DNA of 64,000 nt. Source: an uncultured virus (IMG/VR IMGVR_UViG_3300005253_000330). Its lineage: Duplodnaviria > Heunggongvirae > Uroviricota > Caudoviricetes. The stretch lies in the IMG/VR virus record IMGVR_UViG_3300005253_000330; one strand, written 5' to 3'. Positions 12,391-48,362 of this stretch are shown piece after piece. The position numbers were made by a program, and so were the translations under genes. The notes beneath the pieces are model-generated. The model saw only the letters and a program-made list of their open reading frames with translations, made no database searches and was not told the DNA's origin. Position 1 is the first letter of the stretch, and each line of letters starts with the position of its first letter.

Positions 12391-12419
12391 TTGACTTTCC
12401 CTTAGAAGTATGGTATAAT
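12391..12419 (+). promoter_or_regulatory. Strong sigma70 early promoter
   Basis: TTGACT-17 nt-TATAAT, extended TG, upstream A-tracts. Confidence 0.85.
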
Positions 12420-12967: not shown

Positions 12968-13507
12968 ATGAAGTTTAAAAAAGGGGATAGGGTAAGGCAT
13001 TTGATGTGTAACCAAGATGAAATAATAGAAGGATTCAATGCACGGGGTTGGATAAAGGGGCGCTACTGCGAGACAGGAGATTTATCATCAATCTTCGCTC
13101 CGCCCGAATCATATAGACTAATCAAGGAGGGAAAAGGAATGCCTATCAAAGAAAAGATTGAGAACATCAACGAAGACACTACTATAAAGGAATTGGATGA
13201 TTTGATTGTAGAGATATTGCCTGAGTTACCTTCTAACTGTATCCCGCACATTAAAATTAGAATGAACCAATCTGCTCCCGATGCAGGTTATATCGAAGCC
13301 AGCGTCAATGGTAGAAACGAACAATTTGGTTATTGTGACCAATGCGATAAACTCCAAGCCCTCAAAAATGCTTTAATGTGGCTCGCCGAAAAATCAGGAA
13401 AGTTAAAGGACAATAAAAAGGAGGTAGAAGAACTAAAGAAAGAATTTAATCTCTATGAAGCCCGAATGCAAAAAATATCTGTGAAAATAGAAAGATTGGA
13501 GGAGTAA
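12968..13507 (+). CDS. Hypothetical phage protein
   Basis: MKFKKGDRV start after SD GGAGG. Confidence 0.55.
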   Translation: MKFKKGDRVRHLMCNQDEIIEGFNARGWIKGRYCETGDLSSIFAPPESYRLIKEGKGMPIKEKIENINEDTTIKELDDLIVEILPELPSNCIPHIKIRMNQSAPDAGYIEASVNGRNEQFGYCDQCDKLQALKNALMWLAEKSGKLKDNKKEVEELKKEFNLYEARMQKISVKIERLEE

Positions 13508-13601
13508 TGAACCCTTATTTGATATTCTTGGTAGGTATCGTGATAGGGCTTGCGATGATGGTGGCGGTAATACTTTGGACTTGGTATTTAGGGAGGTAGG
13601 G

Positions 13602-14240
13602 ATGAAAACCAAAGCACACATTAGATACCGATTAAAAGACAATACCATCGTTCCAGGGGTAACAACGATTACTGGCATATTGGCAAAGCCCGCTCTTAAG
13701 TTTTGGGCGAATAAAATCGGGCTACAAGGCATAGAGATAAGAAAGTATGTAGATGATAAGGCAGACATTGGAACTTTAGCCCACGCTATGGTGACAGACT
13801 ATCTAAAAGGAGATAAGACCAATACAGATGACTATACTAAAAATCAAATAGGGCAGGCAGAAAATGCTGCCCTTTCTTTTTTTGAATGGGAGAAAAAATA
13901 CAAGATAGAGCCAATCCTGATTGAGAAACCTTTAATAAGTGAGAAGTATGGCTTTGGGGGAACGGCTGATATTTATGCAAAGGTCGATGGAGTGTTGGAA
14001 TTAGTAGATCTAAAAACAGGTAAAGGAATTTTTGACGAGATGCGATACCAAGTGAGTGCTTATAAGGAGTTATTAATAGAGAATGGTTATCCAGTAGATA
14101 GAGTAAGGATATTAAATATACCGCGAACCGAGAACGAGTCTTTTGTAGATGAGATAGTAAGAAATTGTAATATAGGATTTAAGATTATTCTTAGTTGTTT
14201 GAGTATTTACAATCTGAAAAAAGAAATGAAAAGGGGGTAA
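13602..14240 (+). CDS. PD-(D/E)XK exonuclease (lambda-exo/Cas4-like fold)
   Basis: VPGVTTI, GTLAH, IEKPL, GGTADI, LVDLKTG, QVSAY motifs. Confidence 0.85.
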   Translation: MKTKAHIRYRLKDNTIVPGVTTITGILAKPALKFWANKIGLQGIEIRKYVDDKADIGTLAHAMVTDYLKGDKTNTDDYTKNQIGQAENAALSFFEWEKKYKIEPILIEKPLISEKYGFGGTADIYAKVDGVLELVDLKTGKGIFDEMRYQVSAYKELLIENGYPVDRVRILNIPRTENESFVDEIVRNCNIGFKIILSCLSIYNLKKEMKRG

Positions 14241-14246
14241 GAAGAA

Positions 14247-14570
14247 ATGATTTGTGAACAATGTGGCGGAGAGATGGAAAAAGGAAAGTCCTGGGACTTT
14301 AAGGGCAAAACATTCAACAGAGAGGTTTGCTCGCAATGTGGGTGGAAAGCCAAAGCATTTTTGGTGAAAAGCGGAGATGAAACACCCAGTGGCGGAGGGA
14401 TGAAGATGGGGAAGCCCAAAGAGAAAGTAAATTGGGATAAGATTTCGGAAGGAAAGGTAAGACATCACTTCGCTTTAGAGGCCTTCAAAATGGGTAAACC
14501 ACTCAACGAAGGCCTTGTCATAGAGATTGACTGTTGGGTTAACTATGTAATGACCGGGAAGTTAGAATGA
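14247..14570 (+). CDS. Zinc-ribbon hypothetical protein
   Basis: CEQC...CSQC; follows the exonuclease. Confidence 0.5.
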   Translation: MICEQCGGEMEKGKSWDFKGKTFNREVCSQCGWKAKAFLVKSGDETPSGGGMKMGKPKEKVNWDKISEGKVRHHFALEAFKMGKPLNEGLVIEIDCWVNYVMTGKLE

Positions 14571-14666
14571 AGCATATTGAAATCACCAAAGAAGAACATC
14601 AACACTATCTTGATGAAATAGCATATTGCGATATGTTAAGACATTGGATGGAAGGTGAGGTAAATA

Positions 14667-15026
14667 ATGGAACTTATTAAAGTCGCTGACAAGATAGAAC
14701 ATAGAATTAACCTGTTAGCCAAAGGTCGTGAAGTAATCCAAGAACGAGCGGAAAACAAAGCACGAAAGATAGCCGATTACGAAAAAGAACTTGCTTTAAC
14801 CCTAATCAAAATGAAAGAAGGCGTGGAAATGGAACTGGAAGGACATAGTATAAAAGCCCTTCCCGTGAGCATAATGGAAAAAGTGGCCAAAGGGATGTGT
14901 TGGAAAGAAAAACTTGATATGGAACAAGCCGATGCTGAATATCGCAACGCCATCGCAGGAATGCACGCACTTGAAGCAGAATTGAACGGGTGGCAAAGCA
15001 TATTTAGGCACCTTGAAGAAAGATAA
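14667..15026 (+). CDS. Coiled-coil hypothetical phage protein
   Basis: ORF with SD GAGGT; helical composition. Confidence 0.55.
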   Translation: MELIKVADKIEHRINLLAKGREVIQERAENKARKIADYEKELALTLIKMKEGVEMELEGHSIKALPVSIMEKVAKGMCWKEKLDMEQADAEYRNAIAGMHALEAELNGWQSIFRHLEER

Positions 15027-15134
15027 TGGAAAATTGCTACGCAAGCGCACGATACTTCGGCGATTGCAAAGAGTGTAACAAGGTAGACAAATGCCCCCAG
15101 GCGAGACTTCCGAAGGGGAAGAAGGAGGAAGAAG

Positions 15135-15422
15135 ATGAAGCATACTAAAGGAGAGTGGTTAATAGAGGGAAATGAAATAGTGACTGACGATTGGAGAATG
15201 ATTGTAAAGTTGCCTGATGATTATAGAACTCTAACTGATGAGGATAGAACCAATGCCCAACTAATCGCCTCTGCTCCTGAATTGTTGAAGGCGTGTAAAA
15301 GGGTTGTTAATTGCAAAGAGATAGTGGGGGGGATGGGAAAGGCGATACTGATTAGTTATGAAACACTTAGTATTATAGAACAAGCAATCGCCAAAGCAGA
15401 AGGTAAGAAAGAAAGGAGGTAA
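15135..15422 (+). CDS. Conserved phage hypothetical protein
   Basis: MKHTKGEW...NAQLIASAPELL motif, common in phage early regions. Confidence 0.65.
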   Translation: MKHTKGEWLIEGNEIVTDDWRMIVKLPDDYRTLTDEDRTNAQLIASAPELLKACKRVVNCKEIVGGMGKAILISYETLSIIEQAIAKAEGKKERR

Positions 15423-15425
15423 CTA

Positions 15426-15827
15426 ATGGGAATATCATCAACACTATTTGAGGCGGCGAGGGGAAGGAAGCCCCGAGATCTAAAAAGGGAAGTCTGGGAC
15501 TGCTTGCAGAGATACGCTGCGGGCCACTTAAATCCTAAGACTGAGGATCAGATAGCCCGCACCTTGATCTTCAATGGTTCTGGGGAGATATCTACCCGGG
15601 CAGTAAGAAGGATAATAAGGAATTTACGGTTGGGGGGAAAGTTGATAGTCTCTGATACTCACGGCTACTGGATCCCGGTGGGACCAGAGGATAAGGAACT
15701 GGCAAGAGAATACATAGGGAAGTTGCACGACAGGGGCACTAAGATTTTTAGCCTCATAAAACCACAAGAGATGGCTTTTGATAGGCAGTTCACCGAGCAT
15801 CTGCCTTTAGAAGGGATAAATATATAA
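15426..15827 (+). CDS. Winged-helix DNA-binding protein
   Basis: IARTL...STRAVRRIIRNLR...IVSDTHGYW. Confidence 0.6.
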   Translation: MGISSTLFEAARGRKPRDLKREVWDCLQRYAAGHLNPKTEDQIARTLIFNGSGEISTRAVRRIIRNLRLGGKLIVSDTHGYWIPVGPEDKELAREYIGKLHDRGTKIFSLIKPQEMAFDRQFTEHLPLEGINI

Positions 15828-15828
15828 T

Positions 15829-16047
15829 GGGCCTACGGGGGCTGGTGGCGTGAAAAACACGCTGGTTAGTGGGGGCGACCTCAACAAAGAAGTAGAGGTG
15901 CTTGCGCAATGAGCGATCGTTGGTCACTGTTTGGCGAGTATGATATCTTAGTCAAACACACAGTCACAACCCGTCGGTGATGATTCCGACCTAAGCCTAC
16001 AAAGAAAGACGCAGGCAGTTAATCCTGCCCAGCCCCCAGGTCCACCA
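15829..16047 (+). ncRNA. tRNA-like structured RNA with a large insertion
   Basis: GGGCCT/AGGTCC plus ACCA tail; GGGGGCTGG/CCAGCCCCC; D-like arm GCGTG-AAAAA-CACGC; T-like arm GCAGG-CAGTTAAT-CCTGC; fills an intergenic gap. Confidence 0.6.
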
Positions 16048-16063
16048 ATGAGGAGGTGAAATA

Positions 16064-16258
16064 ATGCAGGAAGCAGAAATACAGGAATGGAAGAAGAGAA
16101 TTGATGTGATGTCTCACGAAGAGATGGCGAGACTATGGAGGTTCGCACCATCAGGGCATCCAGTATTCAAAAGAGATCTACCACTATTTGACTATTTTGA
16201 TGAAAGGTTTAAGAAGTTCGGTCGTTTCACTCCAGACATAAGTAAAAAAATAGGTTGA
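16064..16258 (+). CDS. Small conserved phage protein
   Basis: SD GGAGGTG; MARLWRFAPSGHP motif. Confidence 0.6.
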   Translation: MQEAEIQEWKKRIDVMSHEEMARLWRFAPSGHPVFKRDLPLFDYFDERFKKFGRFTPDISKKIG

Positions 16259-16358
16259 TAAATAATGGTTAATGAGGAGGATAGAGTTAATGGTTAAAAG
16301 AATTTCCCGTTCCTTTCACCGCGCTCTGTCCTCCTCTTCAGATAAGGAGATATAAGAG

Positions 16359-17120
16359 ATGCCAGAAGGAAGAATGTTAAAAAAGACGATAAGTAAAAAC
16401 AAATATCTTGGGATATTAAACGATATTGATTGTTGTGTAGTTTTTACTTGGATTATTCCCTTTTTAGATATAGAAGGACGATATTATGGTGAACCTCAAA
16501 TTATAAAAGGAGAGATCTTTGTAAGACTTAAAAAGATGACAGAATATCGTATTGAAAAAGCACTTCAAAAGTTATCCACAACCCCACTGGTGCTTTGGTA
16601 TAAGGTTGCTAATGGAGAAAGATATGTATATTTTCCTGATTTTAAACAAAACCAGAAACTACGAGAGGGAAGAGAGGCTAAGTCCCATATTCCTGCACCT
16701 ACTCCTGACCAACTCCAGAGTAAGTCCCGACCTACTCCAGAGTTGCCCCGCACAAGTAAAGTAAAGGAAAGTAAAGTAAAGATAAGTAAAGACAGCAAAG
16801 CAGGCAAGCCTGTCCTTTCCAAAACCACTAAAGACCTTTTAGACAATGTGTATAAACAGGGTTTTAATATCTATGCCTTATTAGGACGGTTCAAAAAGAA
16901 AAGTAAGATTAACCTACCAGAGGCCGTAATTGAGAAAGTCTGTTTGTCTTACCTTAAAAACCACGAAAAAATTCAAAATGACTGGCCGTGGTTCATTACC
17001 GCAGTTAAGAAAGCAAGCAGAGAGTATTTTGCCGAGCAGAGCATCAGGGAAGGACAGGGATACAAAAACCATCCTGTGGCTTTGAGTATCAAAGAAATTA
17101 TGAAGAAGATGGGGGGATAA
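16359..17120 (+). CDS. Phage replication initiator (replisome-organizer-like)
   Basis: MPEGRMLKKTIS...DIEGR N-terminal domain, then a low-complexity linker containing DNA repeats. Confidence 0.7.
   Translation: MPEGRMLKKTISKNKYLGILNDIDCCVVFTWIIPFLDIEGRYYGEPQIIKGEIFVRLKKMTEYRIEKALQKLSTTPLVLWYKVANGERYVYFPDFKQNQKLREGREAKSHIPAPTPDQLQSKSRPTPELPRTSKVKESKVKISKDSKAGKPVLSKTTKDLLDNVYKQGFNIYALLGRFKKKSKINLPEAVIEKVCLSYLKNHEKIQNDWPWFITAVKKASREYFAEQSIREGQGYKNHPVALSIKEIMKKMGG
16698..16795. repeat. Putative replication origin: iterons plus A-rich tract inside the initiator gene
   Basis: ACTCCAGAGT twice, CCTACTCC twice, then tandem AAGTA units. Confidence 0.55.
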
Positions 17121-17150
17121 AATGAAGAAGTTTTGTGAGGTATTTCCACT

Positions 17151-17360
17151 ATGATCACCCTAAAATCCTGCGTGAGTCATAACACTATGGTCATCTCAGA
17201 AAAAGACCATCTCCCACTCAAAAAACTCTACACCCAAGCCGTAGAGTTAGGTCGCCAGAGAGTCATCTATAAAAGATTCGGCGAAACCATTGTAGCCGAT
17301 ATGGAAAGTGTGTTTAATGTCTTAACTCAACTCGATAAAATCGTTTATGGAGGTAAATAA
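17151..17360 (+). CDS. Small hypothetical protein, paralogue of 19608..19868
   Basis: Shared I.E.D..PL.KL..QA.E...R.IY...ETIVA....V..VL pattern. Confidence 0.6.
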   Translation: MITLKSCVSHNTMVISEKDHLPLKKLYTQAVELGRQRVIYKRFGETIVADMESVFNVLTQLDKIVYGGK

Positions 17361-17531
17361 TGGGCGTTGGTGAATCAGGATCCACTATTAAGTTTGCTCT
17401 GGCGAATGAGAAGGGGCCTGGCCAAGTGTGGTGTGAGCCAGGGGAGCATTGGGTTCATGAGGACGACTACGACAAGGAATACGAGATGTGTGTGCATTGT
17501 TTGGAGAGAAAAACGAAGGAGGGGGAATGAT

Positions 17532-17927
17532 ATGAGTGAACAGAATTGTATCCATGGGGAAGTATGCAAGTATAAACAGGGGGGGGGTGGAATATGTACC
17601 CTTAAAGAGATATGTAAGTTCTCTGAAGGGGCAAAATTCAGCCCTGCCTATTTGAAGGAAGAGCCAGTCAAACCAAGACGCAAGGAGAAGAGAAAGTATA
17701 AGAAAAGGGCAGAAAAACCTAAGAATTTAACAGCCAGCAAAGAGGAGATCAAGAGAGTGAGAAATCTACTGAGGATGAGAAGAGTTAATGATCTCTTAAC
17801 AGAGGATGAGATGAAGGCCTTAGATATGCACGCCGGCAAGCATTATGAGGAGTTGTCAGAAACAGCAAGACAGCAGATCCTGGATATCGAGAAGGAATCT
17901 AAAAATCGTATGGAGGAGGTAGAGTGA
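17532..17927 (+). CDS. Hypothetical protein with Cys-rich N-terminus
   Basis: ATG at 17532 after a GGAGGGGG SD. Confidence 0.5.
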   Translation: MSEQNCIHGEVCKYKQGGGGICTLKEICKFSEGAKFSPAYLKEEPVKPRRKEKRKYKKRAEKPKNLTASKEEIKRVRNLLRMRRVNDLLTEDEMKALDMHAGKHYEELSETARQQILDIEKESKNRMEEVE

Positions 17928-19603
17928 TGAATCAGTACCAAGAAGTAGAGATCAAGGAGATTAAGGTAGGAGTGCAGCCAAGGAAGTTCTTCGATGAAAA
18001 GAAGATGGAAGAGCTCACTAAGTCCGTCAAGGAGAAAGGGATCCTGCAGCCTATTCTGGTCCGGAAGAGCGGGAAGAAGTTTGATCTGGCCTGCGGAGAA
18101 AGAAGATTGCGAGCTGCCAAAGCGGCTGGATTGAGCAAGATCCCCAGCATTATCCGGAAGCTCACCGATGCCCAGATAATGGAGATCCAATTCGTGGAGA
18201 ACCTGCAGCGTGAGGACCTTAACCCCATCGATGAGGCCCAGGGCCTTCAGGGGTTGATCAAGAAGTGTGGCTATACCCAGGCGGACTTAGCCGACCGAGT
18301 AGGCAAGAGCCAGGCCTATATCGCTAAGCGCATCCGGCTACTGACCTTGCCGGAGAAGATCCAGAGGGCTATTTCACGTGAAATAATCACCCCGGGACAT
18401 GGAGTGGTGATCCTGCGGTTGGGTGATGTTGAGGATCAGCTGCGGATATTTAAAGAAATGGTGGAAGAAAAATTATCTATCAGGAATGCCGAGAATTACC
18501 TTGGTATGCAATTTGGAAACCGCCTACAGGACGCTCCCTTCGATAAGAAGGATTGCGTGAAGTGTCTTTATAACGGTGACCGGCAGCTCGACCTCTTTGA
18601 CAAGGACACCCACCTGAAGAGCAAATGCCTCAACGGGGAATGCTACAAGAAAAAGGTTGGCCAGGTTGTCAAGGCCCGGATAGACAAGCTAAAGAAGAAA
18701 GGGTATAAGGTGATAACCAACGATGAGTTCCGCAAGAAGTATGGGACGGCTGAGAAAGACTGTACGGATCTGCGGACCTATTACAGCTCCGGATATACGA
18801 ACCTTGGAGAGAAGTATAAAACAGAATGCCTGGGGGGATGTAAAGATTATCTTGTAGTGGCCGATGACGATGGATCGGTTAATAAGGAAATTTGCACCAA
18901 GAAGGAGTGTTACCGGTCCTTGGTTGCAGGCGCGAAAAGGCAAAAAGCAAAGGAGGCTGGTCCGGAAGGAAACCTCACGGATAAGCACCAGGAGCAGATT
19001 TATGAGAACAGGACCATTGAAATTAAGCGTGCCGAATGGATGAAGCAGATCTCTACCCGGGCAACCAAGAAGGTGGCCAACACTATGATGCTTTACTTCT
19101 TGAGGTATGCCAGCGGTCCGGACTGGTGGTCTGGCCGGCCTATACTTGACTTATTCAAGAGGCTCGGTATTGCTACCAAGACGGACCAGGCCAAGGCGCT
19201 CAAGAATGCCTCGTCCGATACCATCCTTAAGCGACTCTATACTGCACCGGAGAAGAAAACCGAGAAAGAAATAACCCTGCTGATCCTTAAGAAGGAGCTT
19301 TACGATTATGAAGATAAAGCACTCGACTTCTTTGCCCAGGAGCTGGGTTATGACATCCGGAAAGACTACATCATCAGCGAAGCCTACCTTAATACCCGGA
19401 CCAAGGACCAGCTGGCGAAACTGGCCAAGGAGATCGGGTTGGTTGAATTTCTCAAGAAGGGAACGGTAATAAAGAACGCAAAGGTTTTCGACCCCGAGAG
19501 AATAGCTGATTTGAAGAAGGGGGAAATTATAAAACTCTTCCTGAAGAAGGGCTTCAATCTTAAAGGAAAGGTGCCGGCGGACATAAAAAAGAAAGGAGAT
19601 TAA
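17924..19603 (+). CDS. parB: ParB/RepB/Spo0J-family protein with Cys-rich C-terminal extension
   Basis: QPRKFFD, GILQPILVR, GERRLRA, ENLQREDLNPIDEA, HTH TQADLADRVGKSQAYI. Confidence 0.9.
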   Translation: MMNQYQEVEIKEIKVGVQPRKFFDEKKMEELTKSVKEKGILQPILVRKSGKKFDLACGERRLRAAKAAGLSKIPSIIRKLTDAQIMEIQFVENLQREDLNPIDEAQGLQGLIKKCGYTQADLADRVGKSQAYIAKRIRLLTLPEKIQRAISREIITPGHGVVILRLGDVEDQLRIFKEMVEEKLSIRNAENYLGMQFGNRLQDAPFDKKDCVKCLYNGDRQLDLFDKDTHLKSKCLNGECYKKKVGQVVKARIDKLKKKGYKVITNDEFRKKYGTAEKDCTDLRTYYSSGYTNLGEKYKTECLGGCKDYLVVADDDGSVNKEICTKKECYRSLVAGAKRQKAKEAGPEGNLTDKHQEQIYENRTIEIKRAEWMKQISTRATKKVANTMMLYFLRYASGPDWWSGRPILDLFKRLGIATKTDQAKALKNASSDTILKRLYTAPEKKTEKEITLLILKKELYDYEDKALDFFAQELGYDIRKDYIISEAYLNTRTKDQLAKLAKEIGLVEFLKKGTVIKNAKVFDPERIADLKKGEIIKLFLKKGFNLKGKVPADIKKKGD

Positions 19604-22018: not shown

Positions 22019-22191
22019 CCGAGGATGCCCTTGATGTATTAAGGAAGCACTGCAAGAAGATAAAGCACGGCTCGATAAAGCCCTTCGTTATACTCAAGGA
22101 CGGGGTTGCGGTAGAGGTAAGGGTGCAGATGGGCGATGTGATGATAAAATTGAGACCAGAAAAAAAAGACTTGACAAATACGAAAAAATAG
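22015..22191 (+). CDS. 58-aa YezD/DUF2292-like protein (not in the ORF track)
   Basis: MTEDALDVLRKHCKKIKHGSIKPFVILKDGVAVEVRVQ...; ATGA coupling to the HNH gene. Family resemblance judged by eye. Confidence 0.5.
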   Translation: MTEDALDVLRKHCKKIKHGSIKPFVILKDGVAVEVRVQMGDVMIKLRPEKKDLTNTKK

Positions 22192-22199
22192 TATATTCT
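22171..22199 (+). promoter_or_regulatory. Sigma70 promoter for the packaging/late operon
   Basis: TTGACA-17 nt-TATTCT. Confidence 0.7.
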
Positions 22200-22275: not shown

Positions 22276-22309
22276 GGCCAGCATTCCGAAAGGAGTGTTG
22301 GCCTTTTTT
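22276..22309 (+). terminator. Intrinsic terminator in the late leader
   Basis: GGCCAGCATTCC-GAAA-GGAGTGTTGGCC-TTTTTT. Confidence 0.85.
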
Positions 22310-22582
22310 ATTAGGAGGAATTATGAAACTAAAAGATTGGGAAGCATTTCAAAAGTATAGAGATAAGAGGTTAAAGAAAGTAATTGATTCAAAAGAATAT
22401 AAAGAGATATACAAGCGAAGAAATGAAGCATTAAAAGTAGATACTGCTCATTTGGACTATTATCGTTTTGTTTATCCATTAACAGAAACATTATTAGATG
22501 CCCAAGAAAACCTTTTGATGATGGAAGTCCCCGAAAATACAGTAGAGGGTTGTTTAAATTGGTTGGTTGGGAGAAAGAAACA

Positions 22583-22990
22583 ATGACTGAGAACTTGCCC
22601 GCTAAAAAAGAAAAAATAATAAAGAAAAGAAGATTAAATCCTAAACAAGAACTCTTCTGTCAACTCTATGCGAGTGACGAGGAGTTTTTTGGTAATGGGG
22701 TTAAAAGTTATAAGAAAGCATATAAAATGGATGATTATAAAAGTGCTATGGTTTTAGCCTCAAATCTGTTAAGAAATATTAAGATATTAGATAGAATAAA
22801 TGTTTTGATGGATATAGTGATAAATAATGTGGTGGTGGACAAAGAACTCGCTTTTGTAATCAAACAAAAAGAAAATCTTCCGGCAAAAGTCTCGGCGATC
22901 AAAGAATACAATGTACTGAAAGGCAGAATAATCCAGAAGATAGAAAAAGAAGAAAGAATACTGATAATCAATCTTCATAAGGATGCGTGA
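22583..22990 (+). CDS. terS: Terminase small subunit
   Basis: LNPKQELFCQLY...GNGVKSY..AY...ASNLLRN..I HTH, upstream of TerL. Confidence 0.8.
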   Translation: MTENLPAKKEKIIKKRRLNPKQELFCQLYASDEEFFGNGVKSYKKAYKMDDYKSAMVLASNLLRNIKILDRINVLMDIVINNVVVDKELAFVIKQKENLPAKVSAIKEYNVLKGRIIQKIEKEERILIINLHKDA

Positions 22991-23879
22991 TGAGAGATAG
23001 ACAAACTATTTTAAGGCATCGGTCTTTGCACTATGAAAACCCACAAGTATCTTTATTAAATATTTGTGTGGAAGTTTTGCTTGACATTAGAGACTTGCTC
23101 ATAATGAATCAAGTAGTCTTTACTATTCCCAGTAATCCAAAGCGTGACGAGGAAATAGCCAAAATCCTCTCGACAATCGCCTCTAATACCCCTAAAAAGA
23201 GAAAGGAAGGGTAAGGTATGGCTAAGATTTCGAGGGTAAGACGATTACGACAAATTGTTAGAGACGATGAATTATATCTAAAAAAGTATGGTTCAGGACT
23301 CTCCAAAATGGGCCGACTGCAATGTCGTTACTGGTATTATCTTGCACTAATCAAACTCCAAATCGGATATGACTATGATATAGAGAGTGGTAAGTGGAGC
23401 AGAAAAAATGGCCTTTGATTATTTATGAACAAACGAGCATCTTTTATTAAGTATTTACAAGGTTTTAAGACAAATGAGCAACAAATCAGACTATTCTTAA
23501 TCATTCAATAATAGACTTTCGAGGGTGAGGGTCAATGTCCGATAACGTGTCATCTGTCAACTTGGAGGAGAAAATGGGTAAGGTTTTGAGGGAAGAAGAC
23601 AATTATAGCAAATTCTATGACCAAGTTTATGGTCGTGATAATCCAAAAGGCAAAGCATCGGGTTGGATACAATGGAAAGGGACTGATGTCTGTATAGATT
23701 TAGTTTGTGAGTGTGGTGAAAGAAACCACTTTGATGGTGACTTTTTCTACTTTTATCAATGTCAGAAGTGCTTAAGAATATATGCAGTAGGGCAAAACAT
23801 TAAATTGATTAAGTTATCTGCAGAAGAAATCAAACTTGGTGATCTTGAAAATTGGCAATATAAAGTGGGACAGGATTAA

Positions 23880-25322
23880 ATGGACTGGAAAGACCTCTGG
23901 CACCCGACAGACAGACAGATAGAAGCCCACAAGGCGGTGAAGAAGTATAAGTTTTTACTATATGGCGGAGCAGTAGGTGGTGGCAAGTCATACTTCTTGA
24001 GATGGGAGACGCTTTATTTACTGCTATACTTCTTTAACAAATACAAAATCACGGATATCGTGGCCGGGTTGTTTTGCGAGGATTACCCAAGCCTTAAAGA
24101 CCGCCAGTTATCTAAAATAAGAAAGGAGTTTCCTTTGGAGATAGGAAGGCATCACGCAGATCACAAGGAATACGGGAACTGCTTCTTGCTTAACCCGGGA
24201 TATGGTAGTGGAGTAGTGGCCTTTAGAAACCTCGATGACCCTTCAAAGTATGTGTCAGCCGAGTTTGCTGTGGTTGCCATTGATGAACTCACCAAGAACA
24301 AGAAGCAGGTCTTTGATGAACTAAGACACAGATTAAGATGGCCGGGGATACCTGATGTCAAGTTTATATCAGGTTCTAACCCAGGAAGCATAGGCCACGG
24401 CTGGGTCAAGAAGATGTGGTTCGACGGGACATTTGAACCTGGCGAGGAAGAAGCTCATCTCTTCCACTTCGTCAGGGCGTTGGCAACTGACAATCCTCAT
24501 TTAGACCCAAGTTACTATGCCACATTAAGCGGTCTTCCCCCGGATTTGAAAGCGGCCTTAAAAGACGGTAATTGGGACAGGTTCGCAGGCCAGTTCTTCA
24601 ATGAATGGGACCGAACCATACACGGAGAATGTCCTTTGATTAAAGGCCAATGCAACGAGATAATAGGCATAGACTACGGATACGAGAAACCTTCAAGCGT
24701 GGGTTGGTATAAGATAGGAATAGATGGGAAACTTACCAGATACAACGAACTTTACCAAACAGGACTGACCTACACTATGCTGGCTAAGAAGATTATAGAG
24801 ATGACAGAGGTTGACGATGAACTTAAATACCCAATCAATCTTGAATACATAGTAGCCGACCCTTCAATATGGAATGACAGAGCACATCATAAAGATGCCT
24901 TGATAGGAGAGTCCGGCGCCGAGACGATGCAGAGGATATTCAATGAGGCCTGGGGGGTCAGCAGAATTGTTCTGGTGCAGGGGGATAATAACAGAGTGGT
25001 GGGATGGGGCAGGTGCAGGGAATACTTGAAACCCTACAAAGACCAGCACGACCAAAAGACAGCCAAGTTCGGAGTAACGAGGAATTGCACCGAGTTCAAT
25101 AGGTCTTTCCCAGATTTGGTATTCTCCAAGACAAGGCAAGGAGATGTGGACACAACAGGCGAGGATCACGCAGGTGACGAGTTCAGGTATGTGGTGATGT
25201 CCCGCCCTGAAACTCCCACTCCTCCGTCTAAACACCATATACCCACCACAGAAGAACTGATACGAAAGAGGGTCAGGGACAGTCTGACAAAGAAGAAAGA
25301 GCCGAAGATAATAGGGATGTAA
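23880..25322 (+). CDS. terL: Terminase large subunit
   Basis: Walker A GGAVGGGKS, Walker B VAIDE, SNPG motif, nuclease motifs IGIDYG and DHAGDEFRY. Confidence 0.95.
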   Translation: MDWKDLWHPTDRQIEAHKAVKKYKFLLYGGAVGGGKSYFLRWETLYLLLYFFNKYKITDIVAGLFCEDYPSLKDRQLSKIRKEFPLEIGRHHADHKEYGNCFLLNPGYGSGVVAFRNLDDPSKYVSAEFAVVAIDELTKNKKQVFDELRHRLRWPGIPDVKFISGSNPGSIGHGWVKKMWFDGTFEPGEEEAHLFHFVRALATDNPHLDPSYYATLSGLPPDLKAALKDGNWDRFAGQFFNEWDRTIHGECPLIKGQCNEIIGIDYGYEKPSSVGWYKIGIDGKLTRYNELYQTGLTYTMLAKKIIEMTEVDDELKYPINLEYIVADPSIWNDRAHHKDALIGESGAETMQRIFNEAWGVSRIVLVQGDNNRVVGWGRCREYLKPYKDQHDQKTAKFGVTRNCTEFNRSFPDLVFSKTRQGDVDTTGEDHAGDEFRYVVMSRPETPTPPSKHHIPTTEELIRKRVRDSLTKKKEPKIIGM

Positions 25323-27413: not shown

Positions 27414-27710
27414 ATGGAGGTGATAAGAAGTGTATACAGTAAAGATTGACAAAGTGGAAAATGGGTTCATTGTGAGGGCAGGATGCAAAAACTTCGTCTT
27501 TCAAACTTATAAGCGATTGGAAAAGGAACTCAAGAAGTATTTGGAAGACCCCGAGGGTTACATCAAGAAGCATAGGTATGGCGAGTGTGCGGAATCACCA
27601 GCAGTTATCGGGCCTACTCAGACAGATGTTGTTGTTGGCACTCAAGATTATGTGACTGAGACTACTACTGATGGGAGTTCTGTAGTAACTGTTAGCCAAA
27701 GATAAATAAC

Positions 27711-27823
27711 GGGGGTTGGGGATTAGCCAGGTATCGGGATTGGTATATACCAACGCAGGATTGACCCAACCATAAAGGGCGTTGCAGTTCGCTACTGCTG
27801 AAATCCAATTCTGTCCAACCCCC
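27711..27823 (+). ncRNA. Intergenic multi-stem structured element
   Basis: GGGGGTTGG/CCAACCCCC closing stem; inner GGATT/AATCC, CAACGC/GCGTTG and GCAG/CTGC stems. Confidence 0.4.
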
Positions 27824-27863
27824 TCCAAACTTAATACCTTAACAGGACAATCCTGAATAAGTG

Positions 27864-27900
27864 AAGCCTGTTGGTTCTAATGAACCAATGGGCTTTTTTT
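27864..27900 (+). terminator. Intrinsic terminator overlapped by an upstream antiterminator-like hairpin
   Basis: AAGCCTGTTGGTTC-TAAT-GAACCAATGGGCTT followed by a T-run; AACAGG (27841) can pair with CCTGTT. Confidence 0.75.
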
Positions 27901-27901
27901 A

Positions 27902-28219
27902 TTGGAGGTGACAAGAATGCAGAGAACTTGGGTAGATAGCGAAGGAAACAGAGGAAGGATTATCTTATTTTCCGAATTGCCCGACGATGCGGTTGACAAC
28001 CTACAAATAGAACATAAATTATCCCGAATGCCCCAGACCTTTCTGAAAGAGGAACATCTCAAATGCCTGACCCTGAAGCAGTTGGAAGTGATAACTATGC
28101 GGTTCTGGGGGGATATGGAAGTGAAAGAGATTGCCAAGAGGATAGGGATAACAAGTGACGCAGTATATCGGAGACTAAGAGGGGCGTATAAAAGACTTAG
28201 TATCGAGATAAACCTCTAA
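27902..28219 (+). CDS. Sigma70 region-4-like HTH regulator
   Basis: LTLKQLEVITMRFW..MEVKEIAKRIGITSDAVYRRLRGAYKRL; the true start is probably the ATG near 27917. Confidence 0.75.
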   Translation: MEVTRMQRTWVDSEGNRGRIILFSELPDDAVDNLQIEHKLSRMPQTFLKEEHLKCLTLKQLEVITMRFWGDMEVKEIAKRIGITSDAVYRRLRGAYKRLSIEINL

Positions 28220-28261: not shown

Positions 28262-30415
28262 ATGCCAAAAATATGGACAAAAATTTTATCAGGAAAGAAA
28301 GAAAGCCAGCAACTCACAGAAGAACAACAAGCCGACCTTAAATTCGTAGATGATTTTTACGATGAAGGAATGAAAGCCAGACGCCCCTATGAGAAGCAAT
28401 GGTATATCAATATGGCCTTCTTTCTTGACCAACACTGGCTTACTTGGAACGATACCAAGAGGAAATTGGAAAAGCCCGTCGTTCCTTCTTGGAGAAAACA
28501 CATAACGATTAACAAAATAAAACCCAATGTCTTACATATATTAGCCAAACTCACTAAAAATAAACCAATCTATCAAACCATTCCCGCTACTACGGAGGAC
28601 GATGACCGAAACCGAGCAGAAATCTCTTTGAAAGTTCATAAGTATTTACATCGTATCAACCAGATGGACATCCTTAATCAACGCCTTTATCTATGGAAAA
28701 TAATCTACGGGACGGCATTTAAAGAACCTTATTTTGACGAATCGAAGGGAACGAAAATCCCCAAGAAAATTAAGACTGAAACAATAGAAGGCCAAGAAGT
28801 TCCGATTAAGGTTAAAGGCAAAGAGCAATACTACGATACCGATTATACTGGTGAAGTTAATAACGAAATATACAGTCCTTTTTCTATTCTTCCCGAATCA
28901 GGAGCAACCGACTTTGAACATTCGCAACGGATGATGAAAATAGTCACAAAGTCAATCGAATACATCAGAGAAAAATATGAGGCGGGCAAGTTCGTAAATG
29001 CGGAGTCCAGGACTGCTGGTTCTTCGGTGCAAAGCCAACTGCTTAATTTGATGGGTGAGCAATATACCACGCCCCACATCACCCAGAAAGACAAGAAAGA
29101 GAAAACATCGGCAGAGGGATTCGCCATTATCAAAGAACTAAAGGAACTACCGAGCAAGAAACATCCCAAAGGAAGACTCATTAGGGTTTCTAATGGCGTG
29201 TTGCTTGACAGTGGCCCTTTGCCTTATAAATTTATGATAAGACGTAGGACTTTCGGAATAGTCAAATATGACTACACTCCAGTAGCCGAGAGGTTCTGGG
29301 GGGATACTTCGGTCGTTTCTATGATACCCATTAATGTTGAATTGAACAAGACAGTATCCCAGATTATTGAGATTAAAAATTTAACGGCCAAGCCGAAGTG
29401 GATTGCCTACACACAGAACAAATTAATTGAAACTGCCATTACTTCGGAATCAGGTGAAATAATAACGATAACTCACGTCCCAGGTGTTCCAGACCCCCAT
29501 CCTATTGACCCACCAAATATACCTGCTTATGTTCCGGGATTATTGGAACGAGGGGATAAGGATTTGGAAGATGTATCACTTATCCACGAAGTCTCAAAAG
29601 GAGTCACGCCTCCCGGGGTGACTTCTGGAGTAGCCATCCAGTTTTTACAGGAACAAGATCAGACAGTCTTCGGGCCAGTCGCCAGTCGGTTTGAAACCAA
29701 AGAAGGCGAAGCGGGAACTTACGAACTGGAAATCGTTAAAGAAAGATATAGAGAATCAAGGGTAATAAAAATAGTCGGAGAAAATAACGAAATAGAAGTT
29801 TTTGATTTTATGGCTACAAAGGATATGCCTACCGATGTCATAGTTCAGTCGGGTTCTTCGTTACCCCATAGTTTAGTAGCCAAGCAGCAGTTGGTCTTGC
29901 AGTTCTACGACAAGGGAATGCTGGGCGATCCCCAAGACCCGCAAGTAAGACAGAAAGCGATGAGACTGGCCGAGATGGGCGGGGTTGACGTTATCTACGA
30001 AGAGGCGGCCGCTGACGAAAGAGAGGCAGAAAGAGAACACAAACTCTGGGAGAAAGGTTTACCTGCCGAAGTCCAATTTTTTGACAACCACAAGACCCAT
30101 CTCATCAGACATTATCTATTCTGCAAGTCCGACAGATACCGCAACCTTATTAAGGAAAGGCCGCAGTTTGAGGTAGGAGTAAAGGCTCACATTGACGCAC
30201 ACACCCAGCAAGACCCAGAACGAATAGCGATGCAGAAGCAGGAACAGATGATGCAAGAACAACAGCAAGTCCAAAGGAAGCAGTTGGAAGTCGACAGTGC
30301 GATTAAACTCCAAAAAGCAGATGATGACCGAGCAACGGCAGCGAGTAAAGTATTAACAGAGGTTACTACACGGGAAAGGCCTCCAGAAAAATCTCCGCAA
30401 GGAAAGAAGAAATGA
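28262..30415 (+). CDS. Portal protein (P22-like)
   Basis: 717 aa; ITINKIKP..., FWGDTS, GVTSGVAIQFLQEQD, Gln-rich C-terminal barrel; lies between TerL and scaffold/capsid. Confidence 0.85.
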   Translation: MPKIWTKILSGKKESQQLTEEQQADLKFVDDFYDEGMKARRPYEKQWYINMAFFLDQHWLTWNDTKRKLEKPVVPSWRKHITINKIKPNVLHILAKLTKNKPIYQTIPATTEDDDRNRAEISLKVHKYLHRINQMDILNQRLYLWKIIYGTAFKEPYFDESKGTKIPKKIKTETIEGQEVPIKVKGKEQYYDTDYTGEVNNEIYSPFSILPESGATDFEHSQRMMKIVTKSIEYIREKYEAGKFVNAESRTAGSSVQSQLLNLMGEQYTTPHITQKDKKEKTSAEGFAIIKELKELPSKKHPKGRLIRVSNGVLLDSGPLPYKFMIRRRTFGIVKYDYTPVAERFWGDTSVVSMIPINVELNKTVSQIIEIKNLTAKPKWIAYTQNKLIETAITSESGEIITITHVPGVPDPHPIDPPNIPAYVPGLLERGDKDLEDVSLIHEVSKGVTPPGVTSGVAIQFLQEQDQTVFGPVASRFETKEGEAGTYELEIVKERYRESRVIKIVGENNEIEVFDFMATKDMPTDVIVQSGSSLPHSLVAKQQLVLQFYDKGMLGDPQDPQVRQKAMRLAEMGGVDVIYEEAAADEREAEREHKLWEKGLPAEVQFFDNHKTHLIRHYLFCKSDRYRNLIKERPQFEVGVKAHIDAHTQQDPERIAMQKQEQMMQEQQQVQRKQLEVDSAIKLQKADDDRATAASKVLTEVTTRERPPEKSPQGKKK

Positions 30416-30519
30416 CAGGACAAACTTTAGCCACATATGCAGGAGCATTAAAACGAGATTACAAAGACTTGCATATGAGAATTGCTAAAGCGAGATTAAA
30501 ACGGAAGAAAAGGAGATAG
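30412..30519 (+). CDS. 35-aa peptide resembling the major capsid N-terminus
   Basis: MTGQTLATYAGALKRDYKDLHMRIAKARLKRKKRR; ATGA overlap with the portal stop. Confidence 0.65.
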   Translation: MTGQTLATYAGALKRDYKDLHMRIAKARLKRKKRR

Positions 30520-30521
30520 TT

Positions 30522-30713
30522 ATGCCTTATCCTAACATTCCAAAACATTTACAATCCAAGATGGAAAGATGCGTTGCTAAAGTTAAAGCAAAAGGCGGAG
30601 TTAAAAATGCCTATGCTGTTTGCTATCGAAGTTTGATGGGAAGTAAGGGTGGTGAAAACCCTAACTCAATACACGAAAAAATAGCCCAAGCAAGATTAAG
30701 GAGGAAGAAGTGA
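30522..30713 (+). CDS. Small basic head-module protein
   Basis: MP...KMERCVAKVK...NAYAVC; SD AGGAGA. Confidence 0.6.
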   Translation: MPYPNIPKHLQSKMERCVAKVKAKGGVKNAYAVCYRSLMGSKGGENPNSIHEKIAQARLRRKK

Positions 30714-31042
30714 AAAAGGCAACTAAAAAGGTAGTTAAGAAAGTAATTGAGAAAGAAAAAACCCTTGAAGAATTAAACCGAGAAATTAAATGGTTACGCA
30801 CAGAGTGGCGCAACGATTACAGTTCGTGCAGGACATTAGTTCGGAGAGACAGAAGAAACACCCCTGGCAGACTTTATAAGGTATTGAAAATTTCTGACAA
30901 GGGATTTTGCATATTGATATATGGGAGAGAAAAGAAAGACTACGAAAATATCTCCTTGGGTAAGGAGTGGGCGATATAGAAGACCAAGCGGAACAAAGTC
31001 TATTAGGACTAATCTAAAATCCGCAGTCTAAGGAGGAGTAGG

Positions 31043-31879
31043 ATGCCTATCGTAGAAAAAGAAGAGAAGAAGGGTGACCAAGTAGTCTTAGAGGAAAAAG
31101 GAACTCCAGAGAAAGAAACGGAGCAACCCAAACCCGAAGGTGACACAGTCAAACCCGAAGAAGTAAAGATGGTGGAGATTGAGGGGAAGAAAATGCCACT
31201 CTCTCAAATTCAGGAGGCTTTGAAAGATTCTGAAAACAAGAGCAAGTGGCAGAGAGAACTAACCCAGAAAGGCCAGAGTATTGCCGATGACACCAAATTG
31301 ATTGAGCGACTCAAACCGATGGCCGCTTTTCTTGACGACCCTGCTAATGAGGAAAAACGTAAGAAAATTGAGGCTATCGCCGAGGGGATTGAAGAAGCAA
31401 GAGAAGAACTGCCTCCAGAGGATGAACTCGAAGACCCTGCTATTGCCAAGTTAAGAAAGAAGTATGACATAGCACTTGCCAAAATTGATAAGACGCTAAC
31501 AACCATACAGCGTGGTTCATCTGAAAAAGAACTGGCAGACACTGCACGAGAAGTTGCTCAAGAAAGGAAAGAAGTCAAGGTAAAATACAAAGACCTGGAC
31601 GAGAGTGAACTTGCTTTTATCGAAGAAATTGCTCTTGGAAGACAAGGCGAAAATCTTGTTAAGGTTGCTGATGAGTATGTCAAATACCTACAGGGAAGGG
31701 ACAAAGGCACTATCAAGACATACTTGGAGGACAAGGAAAAAGACGGCAAGAAATTCGCTGAAATTGGGGGTTTACCATCTGCTTCACCTGAAAGAAAATT
31801 ATCCCTCTGGGGAGAGGGAAAGGATTCACCAAGAAAAGCACTTGAAAACACATTAAATAGATTGAAAAAGGAGGAATAA
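31043..31879 (+). CDS. Scaffolding protein
   Basis: Highly charged and helical; VEIEGKKMPL...WQRELTQKGQ; directly upstream of the capsid gene. Confidence 0.75.
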   Translation: MPIVEKEEKKGDQVVLEEKGTPEKETEQPKPEGDTVKPEEVKMVEIEGKKMPLSQIQEALKDSENKSKWQRELTQKGQSIADDTKLIERLKPMAAFLDDPANEEKRKKIEAIAEGIEEAREELPPEDELEDPAIAKLRKKYDIALAKIDKTLTTIQRGSSEKELADTAREVAQERKEVKVKYKDLDESELAFIEEIALGRQGENLVKVADEYVKYLQGRDKGTIKTYLEDKEKDGKKFAEIGGLPSASPERKLSLWGEGKDSPRKALENTLNRLKKEE

Positions 31880-31880
31880 A

Positions 31881-33212
31881 ATGGGACAAGACCTTTCGAA
31901 TTTTGCTGGTGCCTTAAAGAGGGATTATCACGGCCCGATTGTAGACGCTCTTAACAACCTCAGCATCCTCTATTCGCAGTTGGACAAAAACGAGGAAGAT
32001 GTTCAGGTTTCAGGAGAGGGTTTTTCGGCCTACATTCCCATCAAGGTCAAGCGAAATGTAAGAGGCGTTGCCGTCCGTGCAGAGGGCGGAGTTTTACCCA
32101 CTGCTGGCCATACTACAGTTAAGCAGTTAGTTATACCTTTGATGTATAACTACGGCGGAATTAACTTTACTGGCCAAGTAATCAAAGCATCTGCAAAGTC
32201 TGCGACTTCGTTCGCCAAAGTGGCGGATTTAGAAGTCAAGGATATGGTTACCAATTTCAGGATTGGGACCAACAGGCAGATGTTTGCACCTGCCTCTGGC
32301 TATTTATGCCAGACCAATGGAGCCGACCAAAGTGGTTCCAATTCTACGGTAACCGTAAACAATCCAGGAACACAGTGGTTCGAAGTGGGAATGACAGTTC
32401 AGTCGTTCCCCGACACTACTTCTGGAGCGGCCTCTGGTGATAGTGACATCAGTCAAGGATTGACAGAACCAACCTCGCATATGGTTGGGAACATTCTGTC
32501 TTCCACGACCTTCCAATTGAACGATTACACTGATGCCGAGATTACCACTGAAAAGTGGGCTACTGACAGGTTCATCTTCAACTGGGGAGCCAGAACTTTG
32601 GAGATGAACGGATTGATGGACATAATCGATAATTATAGCCTTCAGTCAACTTCGTCTTGGTTCGGACTTCAGTTAGGACTCCAGACCATTCACGGTTTGA
32701 GCAGGTCAACTTATCCTATACTGGAATCTAACATCGAGCACGGTAGCAACAGTAACAGGGACATTTCCGAGGGTTTGCTACAGGACTTGCTGGACGCCAT
32801 TGAAAAGTCAGCGGGGAAACAGCAAGACAACAGGACGCTTCACTTCATTACTACTTATGGTGTGAGGAAAATGTATGCCGACTTGCTACAGGCAGACAGG
32901 AGATATATGAAACCTGTCGATTTGAAGGGTGGATGGAAAACCCTTGCTTATCAGTCAGGGAATGACTTAATTCCTTTCATTGTTGATAAGCATTGCACAC
33001 CTAACACTGTCTTCTGTTTTGACACCCGATACTTGAAAATCTACCGGGCGGGCAACTTTGACTGGATGGATTTTGACGGGCATATGTTCAGGCAGAAGGT
33101 TGATACCAGTGGAAGATACGATGTATGGGAAGCAATGATGTACTGTTACATGAATCTTGGCTGCTCCAGCTTTCGTAACCAGGGCGCTTTGAGGGATATC
33201 AGCGAGAGTTAA
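31881..33212 (+). CDS. Major capsid protein (HK97 fold), segment B
   Basis: ALKRDY.GPI, EGGVLP.AG, MNGL..I, GLSRSTYP, PFIVDKHC; follows the scaffold. Confidence 0.85.
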   Translation: MGQDLSNFAGALKRDYHGPIVDALNNLSILYSQLDKNEEDVQVSGEGFSAYIPIKVKRNVRGVAVRAEGGVLPTAGHTTVKQLVIPLMYNYGGINFTGQVIKASAKSATSFAKVADLEVKDMVTNFRIGTNRQMFAPASGYLCQTNGADQSGSNSTVTVNNPGTQWFEVGMTVQSFPDTTSGAASGDSDISQGLTEPTSHMVGNILSSTTFQLNDYTDAEITTEKWATDRFIFNWGARTLEMNGLMDIIDNYSLQSTSSWFGLQLGLQTIHGLSRSTYPILESNIEHGSNSNRDISEGLLQDLLDAIEKSAGKQQDNRTLHFITTYGVRKMYADLLQADRRYMKPVDLKGGWKTLAYQSGNDLIPFIVDKHCTPNTVFCFDTRYLKIYRAGNFDWMDFDGHMFRQKVDTSGRYDVWEAMMYCYMNLGCSSFRNQGALRDISES

Positions 33213-36306: not shown

Positions 36307-36316
36307 CTGAATTTGT

Positions 36317-36404
36317 GGAGGGGCAGGATTTTATACTTGTGGTATTCAGTCGCACTGTGGTAACACAAAGGACTGACCACTTTTCATAGACCTCCTGCCC
36401 CTCC
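36317..36404 (+). other. Long intergenic hairpin
   Basis: Perfect 12-bp GGAGGGGCAGGA/TCCTGCCCCTCC stem; inner TCAGTC/GACTGA and TGTG-GTAA-CACA. Confidence 0.55.
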
Positions 36405-36417
36405 GTGAGAGAGAATT

Positions 36418-47962: not shown

Positions 47963-47970
47963 TATGAACG
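47953..47970. promoter_or_regulatory. GTTCA-N5-TGAAC palindrome, copy 1
   Basis: GCGTTCATAATATGAACG at the scaffold stop. Confidence 0.55.
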
Positions 47971-48354: not shown

Positions 48355-48362
48355 GAGGATGA

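Follow-up and report, generated by a model that had tools for sequence, protein, structure and literature searches.

Our analysis of a 64,000-nucleotide (nt) stretch of DNA from an uncultured virus (IMG/VR record IMGVR_UViG_3300005253_000330; hereafter the window), which is coding almost wholly on its plus strand, identifies a 219-nt element at 15829..16047 (+), here termed el1, as a real, conserved, non-coding structured RNA candidate of the plus strand. Judged from its sequence and predicted folding, it represents an undescribed family with an end resembling the acceptor of a transfer RNA (tRNA). An earlier note on this DNA had described the element as an RNA similar to tRNA or transfer-messenger RNA (tmRNA) with alanine identity and had offered several roles for it; among these options, that of a processing signal fits el1 best. 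We propose, with a probability of roughly 0.35, that el1 is an intercistronic mimic of a tRNA end (A-2, U-1, G+1 and ACCA), which would be presented to ribonuclease P (RNase P) and to 3' trimming.

The element fills most of an open reading frame (ORF)-free gap of 236 nt (15828-16063) within a tightly packed plus-strand operon. The GC content of this gap is 0.53, compared with 0.37-0.47 in the flanking genes. The plus strand has 11 ORF-free gaps of 100 nt or more; this one is the second longest of them, after a 261-nt gap at the window start, and ranks first both in GC content and in stability per nucleotide (-0.39 kcal/mol/nt). The predicted layout of el1 consists of four hairpin arms and two long linkers, closed by a bulged helix of 15 base pairs (bp), with the following parts (P, pair probability):

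15827..15828 (+): A(-2) and U(-1), immediately before the first paired G; identical in a related contig of 39,394 nt, described below
15829..15834 (+): outer closing helix, 5' strand GGGCCU, pairing with 16038-16043
15835..15836 (+): bulge AC, 2 nt, between the outer and inner helices
15837..15845 (+): inner closing helix, 5' strand GGGGGCUGG, 9 nt, pairing with CCAGCCCCC at 16029-16037 with 100% complementarity
15850..15927 (+): arm A, an extended irregular hairpin in which 8 short helices include 4 G-U pairs; helix probabilities 0.93-0.99
15878-82/15895-99 (+): apical stem ACCUC/GAGGU of arm A, in the minimum free energy (MFE) structure
15928..15958 (+): arm B, hairpin UGUUUGGC(GAG)/(CUU)GUCAAACA (15928-35/15951-58), with G-U pairs; P 0.96/0.84
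15973..15990 (+): arm C, hairpin GUCGG-UGAUGAUU-CCGAC (15973-77/15986-90); P 0.93
16011..16028 (+): T-like arm GCAGG-CAGUUAAU-CCUGC (16011-15/16024-28); weaker, P 0.56
16029..16043 (+): 3' strands of the inner helix, CCAGCCCCC, and of the outer helix, AGGUCC, pairing with the 5' closing strands
16044..16047 (+): single-stranded ACCA tail, followed by AUGAGGAGGUGA, the Shine-Dalgarno (SD) region of the next gene

The outer helix is made of the pairs G15829-C16043, G15830-C16042, G15831-U16041 (the third pair), C15832-G16040, C15833-G16039 and U15834-A16038. Its description in the earlier note as GGGCCT/AGGTCC with a third-pair G-U and an ACCA tail, followed by a 2-nt bulge and an inner helix, holds both in the sequence and in the fold, where the mean pair probabilities are 0.98 for the outer and 0.94 for the inner helix. 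These probabilities remained steady when el1 was folded in a context of 320-800 nt, with flanks of up to 230-350 nt. The interior hairpins that had been read from the DNA (ACCTC/GAGGT, UGUUUGGC/GUCAAACA and GTCGG/CCGAC) likewise all lie within the MFE structure, with P of 0.93-0.96. The tRNA-like arms fared less well. The D-like arm proposed at 15848-62 exists as a perfect 5-bp inverted repeat and is present in the DNA fold, but the RNA ensemble puts its bases in arm A, and the T-like arm is present but is the weaker of the predicted helices. As had been observed, the latter lacks a T-loop: its loop is 8 nt long and without the T-loop consensus, and its 3' strand runs continuously into that of the inner helix.

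The MFE of el1 is -90.8 kcal/mol, compared with -68.2 +/- 4.5 kcal/mol for shuffled sequences (z -5.08), and none of 200 shuffles was equally stable. For the minus strand the corresponding values are -80.2 kcal/mol and z -3.09, and el1 folded as single-stranded DNA scores z -2.11, 6 of the 200 shuffles being equally stable. The helices of the MFE structure hold 8 G-U pairs, which are specific to the plus strand, as they would be C-A mismatches on the other.

Within el1, only two plus-strand frames of 20 codons or more are found, of 20 and 23 codons. The longer one (15909-15980) is preceded by an SD-like GAGGUG and ends with UGA UGA within a hairpin loop, which gives el1 the look of a tmRNA tag. 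A reading of this frame as a tmRNA tag or small protein was rejected, since the frame is not conserved among related contigs: a 1-nt insertion after 15972 shifts it in two of them (the 39,394-nt contig, record 4 of run X6, and record 6 of run X7), and its AUG is apparently changed in a third, of 100 nt (record 5 of run X6), as judged by hand alignment of a 24-nt loose end. The option of a mini-tmRNA, raised in the earlier note, loses its candidate tag with this frame. Minus-strand ORFs of 45 and 67 amino acids (aa) overlapping el1 were also rejected as candidates, the 67-aa ORF (15948-16151) being disrupted by both of the indels found in relatives. At el1, we found no promoter-like site matching at least 9 of 12 positions and no plus-strand terminator; a terminator-like hairpin on the minus strand (16031-16012) and weak minus-strand promoters are at the level of chance (26 vs 22.3 expected; 11 vs 9.6). 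Because promoter and terminator are absent there and a strong promoter lies upstream at 12391-12419, el1 is most likely transcribed within the operon, and a discrete el1 RNA would therefore arise only through processing.

Related phage contigs from other sediment runs, whose sources are labelled marine sediment, carry el1 at about 91-94% identity; 451 nt of the window were compared, with an alignment threshold of 80%, and run X5 yielded no alignment. For the 39,394-nt contig, the alignment is confined to 15837-16053 and shows 13 substitutions and 7 gap positions; beyond it, on both sides, the contig is unlike the window at this threshold. On alignment, the el1 spacer is better conserved than the surrounding genes. 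The changes lie for the most part in loops and linkers. Six of the eight substitutions listed for all runs are at unpaired positions, and G15873-U15903 is replaced by G-C in two related contigs. One listed substitution falls in the apical loop of arm A, which is itself 5 nt shorter in the relatives through five single-base deletions, while arm B has no listed change in record 4 of run X6 or record 6 of run X7. In arm C, the G inserted after 15972 gives a relative a sixth pair, and in the 100-nt contig, which is more distant, another perfectly paired stem of 6 bp carries the same UGAUGAU loop, three pairs being changed on both sides relative to the other relative. The left loose end of the 39,394-nt contig shows a stop codon, a U and GGGCC arranged as in the window. 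In this contig, the sole relative that covers them, U(-1), A(-2), G(+1), the G3-U70 pair and ACCA are all unchanged.

The homologue search suggested by the earlier note brought these relatives, but nothing similar in public collections beyond an identical copy. Across the public phage, plasmid, IMG/VR, JGI metagenome and GTDB collections, only this copy (L001/L024/G001) and chance matches to short patterns were recovered. Neither el1 nor 13000-19000 had a blastn match in the phage records, and blastn against plasmids gave none. In IMG/VR, a 22-mer pattern found one locus, the identical copy; the inner-helix pattern found 14 loci, 13 of them GC-rich chance matches; the pattern of the 3' end plus SD found only the element itself; and a pattern of the ends alone found 16 loci, with similarity only at the element itself. 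The 3' arm pattern occurred at no fewer than 120 loci in genome contigs, and among the matches listed the similarity was limited to the pattern itself. In the literature searched, there was no described RNA of the el1 kind next to phage rep genes, which is no proof of absence in print. The record number of the window is not in the 6 supplementary files searched from a catalogue of structured RNAs in IMG/VR (PMC10690425), where it may still be listed.

Elsewhere in the window, a shorter element shares the core of el1:

27711..27827 (+): el2, probable paralogue of el1, with the closing helix GGGGGUUGG (27711-19) / CCAACCCCC (27815-23)

The closing helix of el2 equals the inner helix of el1 with one C-G replaced by U-A. 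The hairpin that abuts its 3' strand, ACGCAGGAUUG.../...CAAUUCUGU, opens with ACGCAGG as in el1, and the helix is followed by U-CCA (27824-27), by our own arithmetic a 1-in-64 event. A 17-mer of el2 (27807-23) matches el1 16021-37 at 14 of 17 positions, and none of the three differences breaks a pair: a C-G is changed to U-A on both sides, and a G-C becomes G-U twice. No other site in the window, on either strand, comes within 3 mismatches of the el1 17-mer. A degenerate pattern of both sites occurs at 13 places in all of IMG/VR, of which two are el1 and el2, in one record, and the other 11 are without the 5' arm. As with el1, a stop codon lies close upstream: el2 starts 5 nt past the stop of ORF 27430-27705. 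It is without an outer helix and without a G-U third pair. The gap that holds it (27706-27901) folds with z -4.41 when the terminator is included, and el2 alone with z -1.82; this strong terminator, a 15-bp hairpin with a U7 run (27866-27900), lies about 40 nt downstream. On the comparison of sequences, el2 is a probable paralogue of el1. A blastn search of el2 against the phage records gave no match. We also considered el2 as an antisense RNA to rep, an idea that came from 17-19-nt el2-complementary matches in the rep genes of L005 and L006 (E 0.033); in a duplex scan the site in the phage's own rep ranked 1384 of 7948, and this candidate was rejected. The gap 27706-27901 directly precedes the gene for a small sigma-70 region-4 protein (27902-28219).

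In PMC4919922, bacterial RNase P is described as reading U(-1), A(-2), a helical G(+1) and an RCCA that pairs with the L15 loop, and its non-tRNA substrates are given as 4.5S RNA, tmRNA, operon mRNAs and phage regulatory RNAs. The end of el1 carries these substrate features (U15828, G15829 and ACCA at 16044-47), and el2 carries them in part only. Since RNase P is able to cut non-tRNA substrates and the end of el1 has what it reads, we propose that the element is used as a handle for processing. In this scenario, el1 would be transcribed on the plus strand within an early or replication operon. The cut by the RNase P of the host would fall between U15828 and G15829, one base past the upstream stop codon, and A16047 would become the 3' end after trimming by the nucleases of tRNA 3' maturation. 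The product would be a stable RNA of about 219 nt. The upstream message would at the same time be split from that of a 64-aa ORF, a leader peptide and the replication initiation gene rep, which would receive a new 5' end at a ribosome-binding site and whose expression may be affected. Both the N-CCA end of el2 and its start just past a stop codon fit such processing. We find it very doubtful that matters go further, with the 219-nt RNA being CCA-repaired and alanylated in the cell, a charged tRNA-Ala mimic acting in trans in the control of rep, and the long messages of this phage lineage being punctuated by tRNA-end mimics, as those of mitochondria are by tRNAs.

If the processing proposal were true, this would be a double-stranded DNA phage that enlists the RNase P and the tRNA 3' trimming of its host for cutting and defining its messages. 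To our knowledge, punctuation by tRNA ends has been found in organelles and for a few phage regulatory RNAs, and we know of no description of it as a recurring intergenic module. The case of el1 offers a long conserved body, a probable paralogue within the same genome and a place directly before a replication cassette, and it is experimentally tractable. If only the fold were real, el1 would still add a new family of structured RNA, encoded by an uncultured sediment phage.

Several observations weigh against the proposed processing. As a substrate, el1 departs from tRNA in the distance from the CCA end to the first loop, which is about 20 bp plus a bulge, versus 12 bp in tRNA, and in the absence of a T-loop for the specificity domain of RNase P. 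In the 39,394-nt contig, U-A-C at 15834-36 is replaced by AA, with loss of the sixth outer pair, and one C of the 3' strand of the inner helix (16029..16037) is deleted and not compensated; the terminal helices show no covariation between the relatives examined. These relatives come from two runs of one study and were compared as difference tables, in which the positions of substitutions are listed for 7 of 13 in the 39,394-nt contig and for none of 10 in the 100-nt contig. In records 1-2 of run X4, the 3' arm and SD (about 16029-16059) stand beside different upstream sequence and may therefore be shared gene-boundary sequence and not half of a helix; the recurrence suggests either this or a shorter version of el1. 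The fold itself is strong but not unique in the genome, because its stability corrected by regression on GC gives z -2.55 among 2127 sliding 219-nt windows of the same 64 kb, at least 9 of which folded lower. As for the second element, el2 has C(-1) and a pyrimidine discriminator (UCCA, not RCCA). By our own arithmetic, about 0.15 chance sites with up to 3 mismatches are expected per window, and 11 helices of at least 8 bp followed by NCCA were found in a scan of the window, such arrangements being not rare. The score of a local alignment of el1 and el2 was matched by 46 of 300 shuffles and by 84 of 389 other genome windows; since this generic score is not significant, paralogy is probable but not proven. 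A global MAFFT alignment of the two elements did not align the shared 3' core. With respect to run X4, we also observed the 3' arm and SD of el1 downstream of a homologue of the 64-aa ORF.

Membership of el1 in the tRNA or tmRNA families is not supported. ARAGORN reported no tRNA or tmRNA gene in the 64,000-nt window, none of the 4227 families of Rfam 15 reached its gathering score anywhere in it, and at E values of up to 10 over 15600-16300 there were only 2 unrelated weak matches (13.4 and 12 bits). The geometry is not that of tRNA: instead of a 7-bp acceptor, a 5-bp T stem and a 7-nt T-loop, el1 has 6 bp, a bulge, 9 bp and a 5-bp stem. It does possess a discriminator and an encoded CCA after the terminal helix (A16044-C-C-A16047) and, as in tmRNA, a G3-U70 pair (G15831-U16041). 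A true mimic, which would be charged with alanine, act as a decoy for synthetases or tRNA-targeting nucleases or serve as a mini-tmRNA, is nevertheless very unlikely. In its favor, el1 shares G1-C72, G2-C71, G3-U70, A73 and CCA with the acceptor minihelix of tRNA-Ala, and minihelices bearing G3-U70, A73 and CCA are charged by alanyl-tRNA synthetase (AlaRS). The sequence determinants of an AlaRS substrate are present in el1, and G1-C72, G3-U70, A73 and CCA are kept in the 39,394-nt contig, but el2 is without G3-U70, for which reason alanine identity is not a feature of the family. Charging would moreover need exact ends. Unlike the minihelix, el1 interrupts its 6 bp with a 2-nt bulge before a further 9 bp and has no 7/5 stack of acceptor and T stems, no T-loop and no anticodon arm; because that arm is absent, a decoy for anticodon nucleases is implausible. 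With tmRNA, el1 has in common the tRNA-Ala-like end, a long insert where the anticodon arm would be and tandem stops in a hairpin loop, but it is 219 nt long, has no predicted pseudoknots, and its T-like arm is set apart from the acceptor by a 9-bp helix. For el1, neither charging with alanine nor service as a decoy or mini-tmRNA is supported.

Downstream of el1 lies the cassette of the replication initiation gene, with these features:

16064..16258 (+): ORF of 64 aa, no known family, between el1 and the rep leader
16274..16361 (+): rep leader, with a 13-bp hairpin (16274-86/16324-36) that buries an SD-like GAGGAGG; z -3.72
16359..17120 (+): replication initiation protein (rep), phrog_1408, E 9e-10

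An exact 10-nt direct repeat, AATGAGGAGG, brackets the 64-aa ORF (16047-56 and 16271-80). The right loose end of the 39,394-nt contig, behind 16053, resembles window 16284-16310; the 64-aa ORF is therefore absent from this contig, and el1 abuts the rep leader there. It is a small gene whose gain or loss came about through recombination at repeated ribosome-binding-site sequences. Within the leader, an ORF of 21 codons (16290-16355; MVKRISRSFHRALSSSSDKEI) stops 3 nt before the rep ATG at 16359, and a U-G pair of the leader stem is replaced by C-G in the 39,394-nt contig. The rep control regions of plasmids R1 (tap/CopA) and ColIb-P9 (repY/Inc) likewise combine a leader peptide with a structured leader, and the window resembles them in having a leader ORF near the rep ATG behind an SD-sequestering hairpin. 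It differs from them in that el1 lies upstream of the cassette and that no convincing antisense promoter was found.

This arrangement opens the way for another hypothesis, which we consider possible though doubtful: that of a cis-acting leader, in which the fold would remain part of the mRNA and govern how the rep cassette is translated or how stable it is, whether by binding a protein or ligand or by stabilising the 5' end; the ACCA and the G-U pair would be incidental. The position of el1 directly 5' of the rep leader hairpin in the 39,394-nt contig, and one small ORF away from it in the window, would suit such a function, as would the lack of a promoter and terminator of its own and the closing helix around a multi-arm junction, which is a common layout of aptamer domains. 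Against this stand the absence of any Rfam riboswitch or leader match, a GC-rich 15-bp closing helix that is very stable for a switch, and the SD of the next gene, which lies outside the fold and is unsequestered in the MFE structure. Furthermore, el2, with the same core, precedes a terminator and not a regulated start, and five distant rep relatives (42-46% identity) are without an el1-like element, the largest gap upstream of them, 136 nt, showing no similarity.

A role at the level of DNA, as an origin, a single-strand initiation signal or a recombination boundary, would likewise make sense of a site that adjoins rep and a ParB gene and whose inverted repeats exist in DNA; the AATGAGGAGG repeat and the presence or absence of the 64-aa ORF would then record recombination at the 3' edge of el1. 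We nevertheless hold it to be highly improbable. The element is GC-rich and not AT-rich, no iterons are found in 15600-16500, the single-stranded DNA fold is weak, the G-T pairs it contains would be required on one strand only, and el2 is far from the replication genes. A replication origin was rejected as a candidate on its GC richness and lack of iterons, the longest direct repeats in 15600-16500 being of 10-11 nt and scattered.

The closing helix alone could matter if el1 were an intercistronic hairpin for processing or stability of the RNase III type, in the style of the sites between the early genes of T7, with the interior as a passenger. In el1 the coaxial stack reaches about 20 bp (6+9+5) and in el2 18-19 bp, which comes near two helical turns, a third long GC-rich hairpin occupies an intergenic position at 36307-36417 (z -5.60), and the 3' arm turns up in another context in run X4. 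We consider this reading unlikely, as a 145-nt interior conserved at >90% amid diverging flanks, with one arm compensated, is unexpected for a passenger; in addition, the bulge interrupts the helix at 6 bp, and the N-CCA ends of el1 and el2 would go unexplained. The hairpin at 36307-36417, with arms GGAGGGGCAGGA / UCCUGCCCCUCC, lies directly 5' of gene 36418-36849 and has GCAGGAUU / CCUGCC in common with the T-like arms of el1 and el2; its homology to them is uncertain.

It is also conceivable, if decidedly improbable, that el1 has no function and is the remnant of a decaying gene or a fortuitously stable spacer. Few relatives were found, the stability against GC-matched windows of the genome is only that given above, and the 23-codon ORF with its SD-like GAGGUG may extend to about 50 codons in one relative. 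Such a spacer would not be expected to be conserved above its flanking genes, with changes concentrated in loops and a compensated stem, nor to be accompanied by el2 with the same core.

Phage regulatory RNAs are among the nearest known systems. The C4 antisense RNA of P1 and P7, work on which is attributed to Hartmann et al. in 1995, is reportedly processed by RNase P, and the CI RNA of P4 is a phage regulatory RNA cut from an operon transcript by the same enzyme. Like el1, these are phage non-coding RNAs in a polycistronic transcript, without a terminator of their own, which take their discrete form through the host enzyme for tRNA 5' processing, as is predicted for el1. Unlike them, el1 is about three times longer, has no match to the Rfam C4 family and has no antisense target that could be found in the el2 duplex scan. 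T4 species 1 and 2 (rnaC and rnaD) are small stable phage RNAs encoded in a tRNA gene cluster and are similar to el1, likened by description alone, in their tRNA-like ends and non-tRNA bodies, whereas the window of el1 has no tRNA genes by ARAGORN.

Plant mitochondrial t-elements and mascRNA of MALAT1 are discussed in PMC4919922 as tRNA-like processing signals in mRNAs. They share with el1 an acceptor-like helix, situated between coding regions or behind them, through which tRNA-end processing is put to use in setting mRNA ends, yet as described there they are eukaryotic or organellar and cloverleaf-like, whereas el1, from a bacterial virus, encodes its CCA and joins a stack of some 20 bp to a non-tRNA body of 145 nt. 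YrlA RNAs, as presented in PMC4201824, carry GNCGAAN0-1G near the 5' end, with a Ro60 (TROVE) gene no more than 4 kb away on the strand that encodes them, and that of M. smegmatis is cleavable by RNase P and can receive CCA. As described there, they resemble el1 in having their 5' and 3' ends in a long bulged stem and in their tRNA-like features, and they differ in that the tRNA-like part is internal in YrlA and terminal in el1. We rejected YrlA as a class for el1, the GNCGAAN0-1G motif being absent from 15829-15870 and a TROVE domain from all 71 window ORFs. Readings as signal recognition particle (SRP) RNA, 6S RNA, pRNA, RNase P RNA, a riboswitch or a ribozyme were rejected for want of an Rfam match.

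Profile scans with Pfam and PHROG, which covered 71 ORFs of the window, place el1 in a phage genome with the following genes besides rep:

13575-14240: exonuclease
15426..15827 (+): upstream gene, 133 aa, phrog_2113, unknown function; stop TAA at 15825-27, 1 nt before el1
17924-19603: ParB-like protein
22550-25322: terminase subunits
28262-30415: portal

A capsid protein and an M15 endolysin are also among the products assigned by these scans. The 133-aa upstream protein has a helix-helix-helix-strand-strand pattern in a low-confidence AlphaFold model (pLDDT 48) and three relatives at 88, 74 and 60% identity; its alignment against viral, metagenome and genome collections returned the same contig only. 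Promoters near the sigma-70 consensus are found at 12391-12419 (TTGACT-17-TATAAT, with TG, 11/12) and at 22171-22199 (TTGACA-17-TATTCT), and they imply a bacterial host with canonical promoters. Together with a 12-bp terminator at 22276-22303, they mark operon boundaries.

The window holds two portal-like and two SU10-type major-capsid-like genes (28262-33212 and 44759-49994), and its GC content climbs from about 0.40 to about 0.48-0.54 past approximately 44 kb; the nearest record, of 42,425 nt, matches part of the window only. The duplicated portal and capsid genes and the shift in GC content suggest a large phage in which modules are duplicated, or else the joining of two genomes. The capsid gene 31881-33212 includes, at 32071-32461, several of the genome's most over-structured stretches of 219 nt (GC-corrected z down to -3.0), and the gene is followed by an ORF for a LAGLIDADG endonuclease (33241-33723). 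An insertion of the intron or intein type is possible near this gene; Rfam gave no intron match. The top over-structured window of the genome, 34891-35041 (GC-corrected z -3.22), lies inside an 839-aa ORF at 33787-36306.

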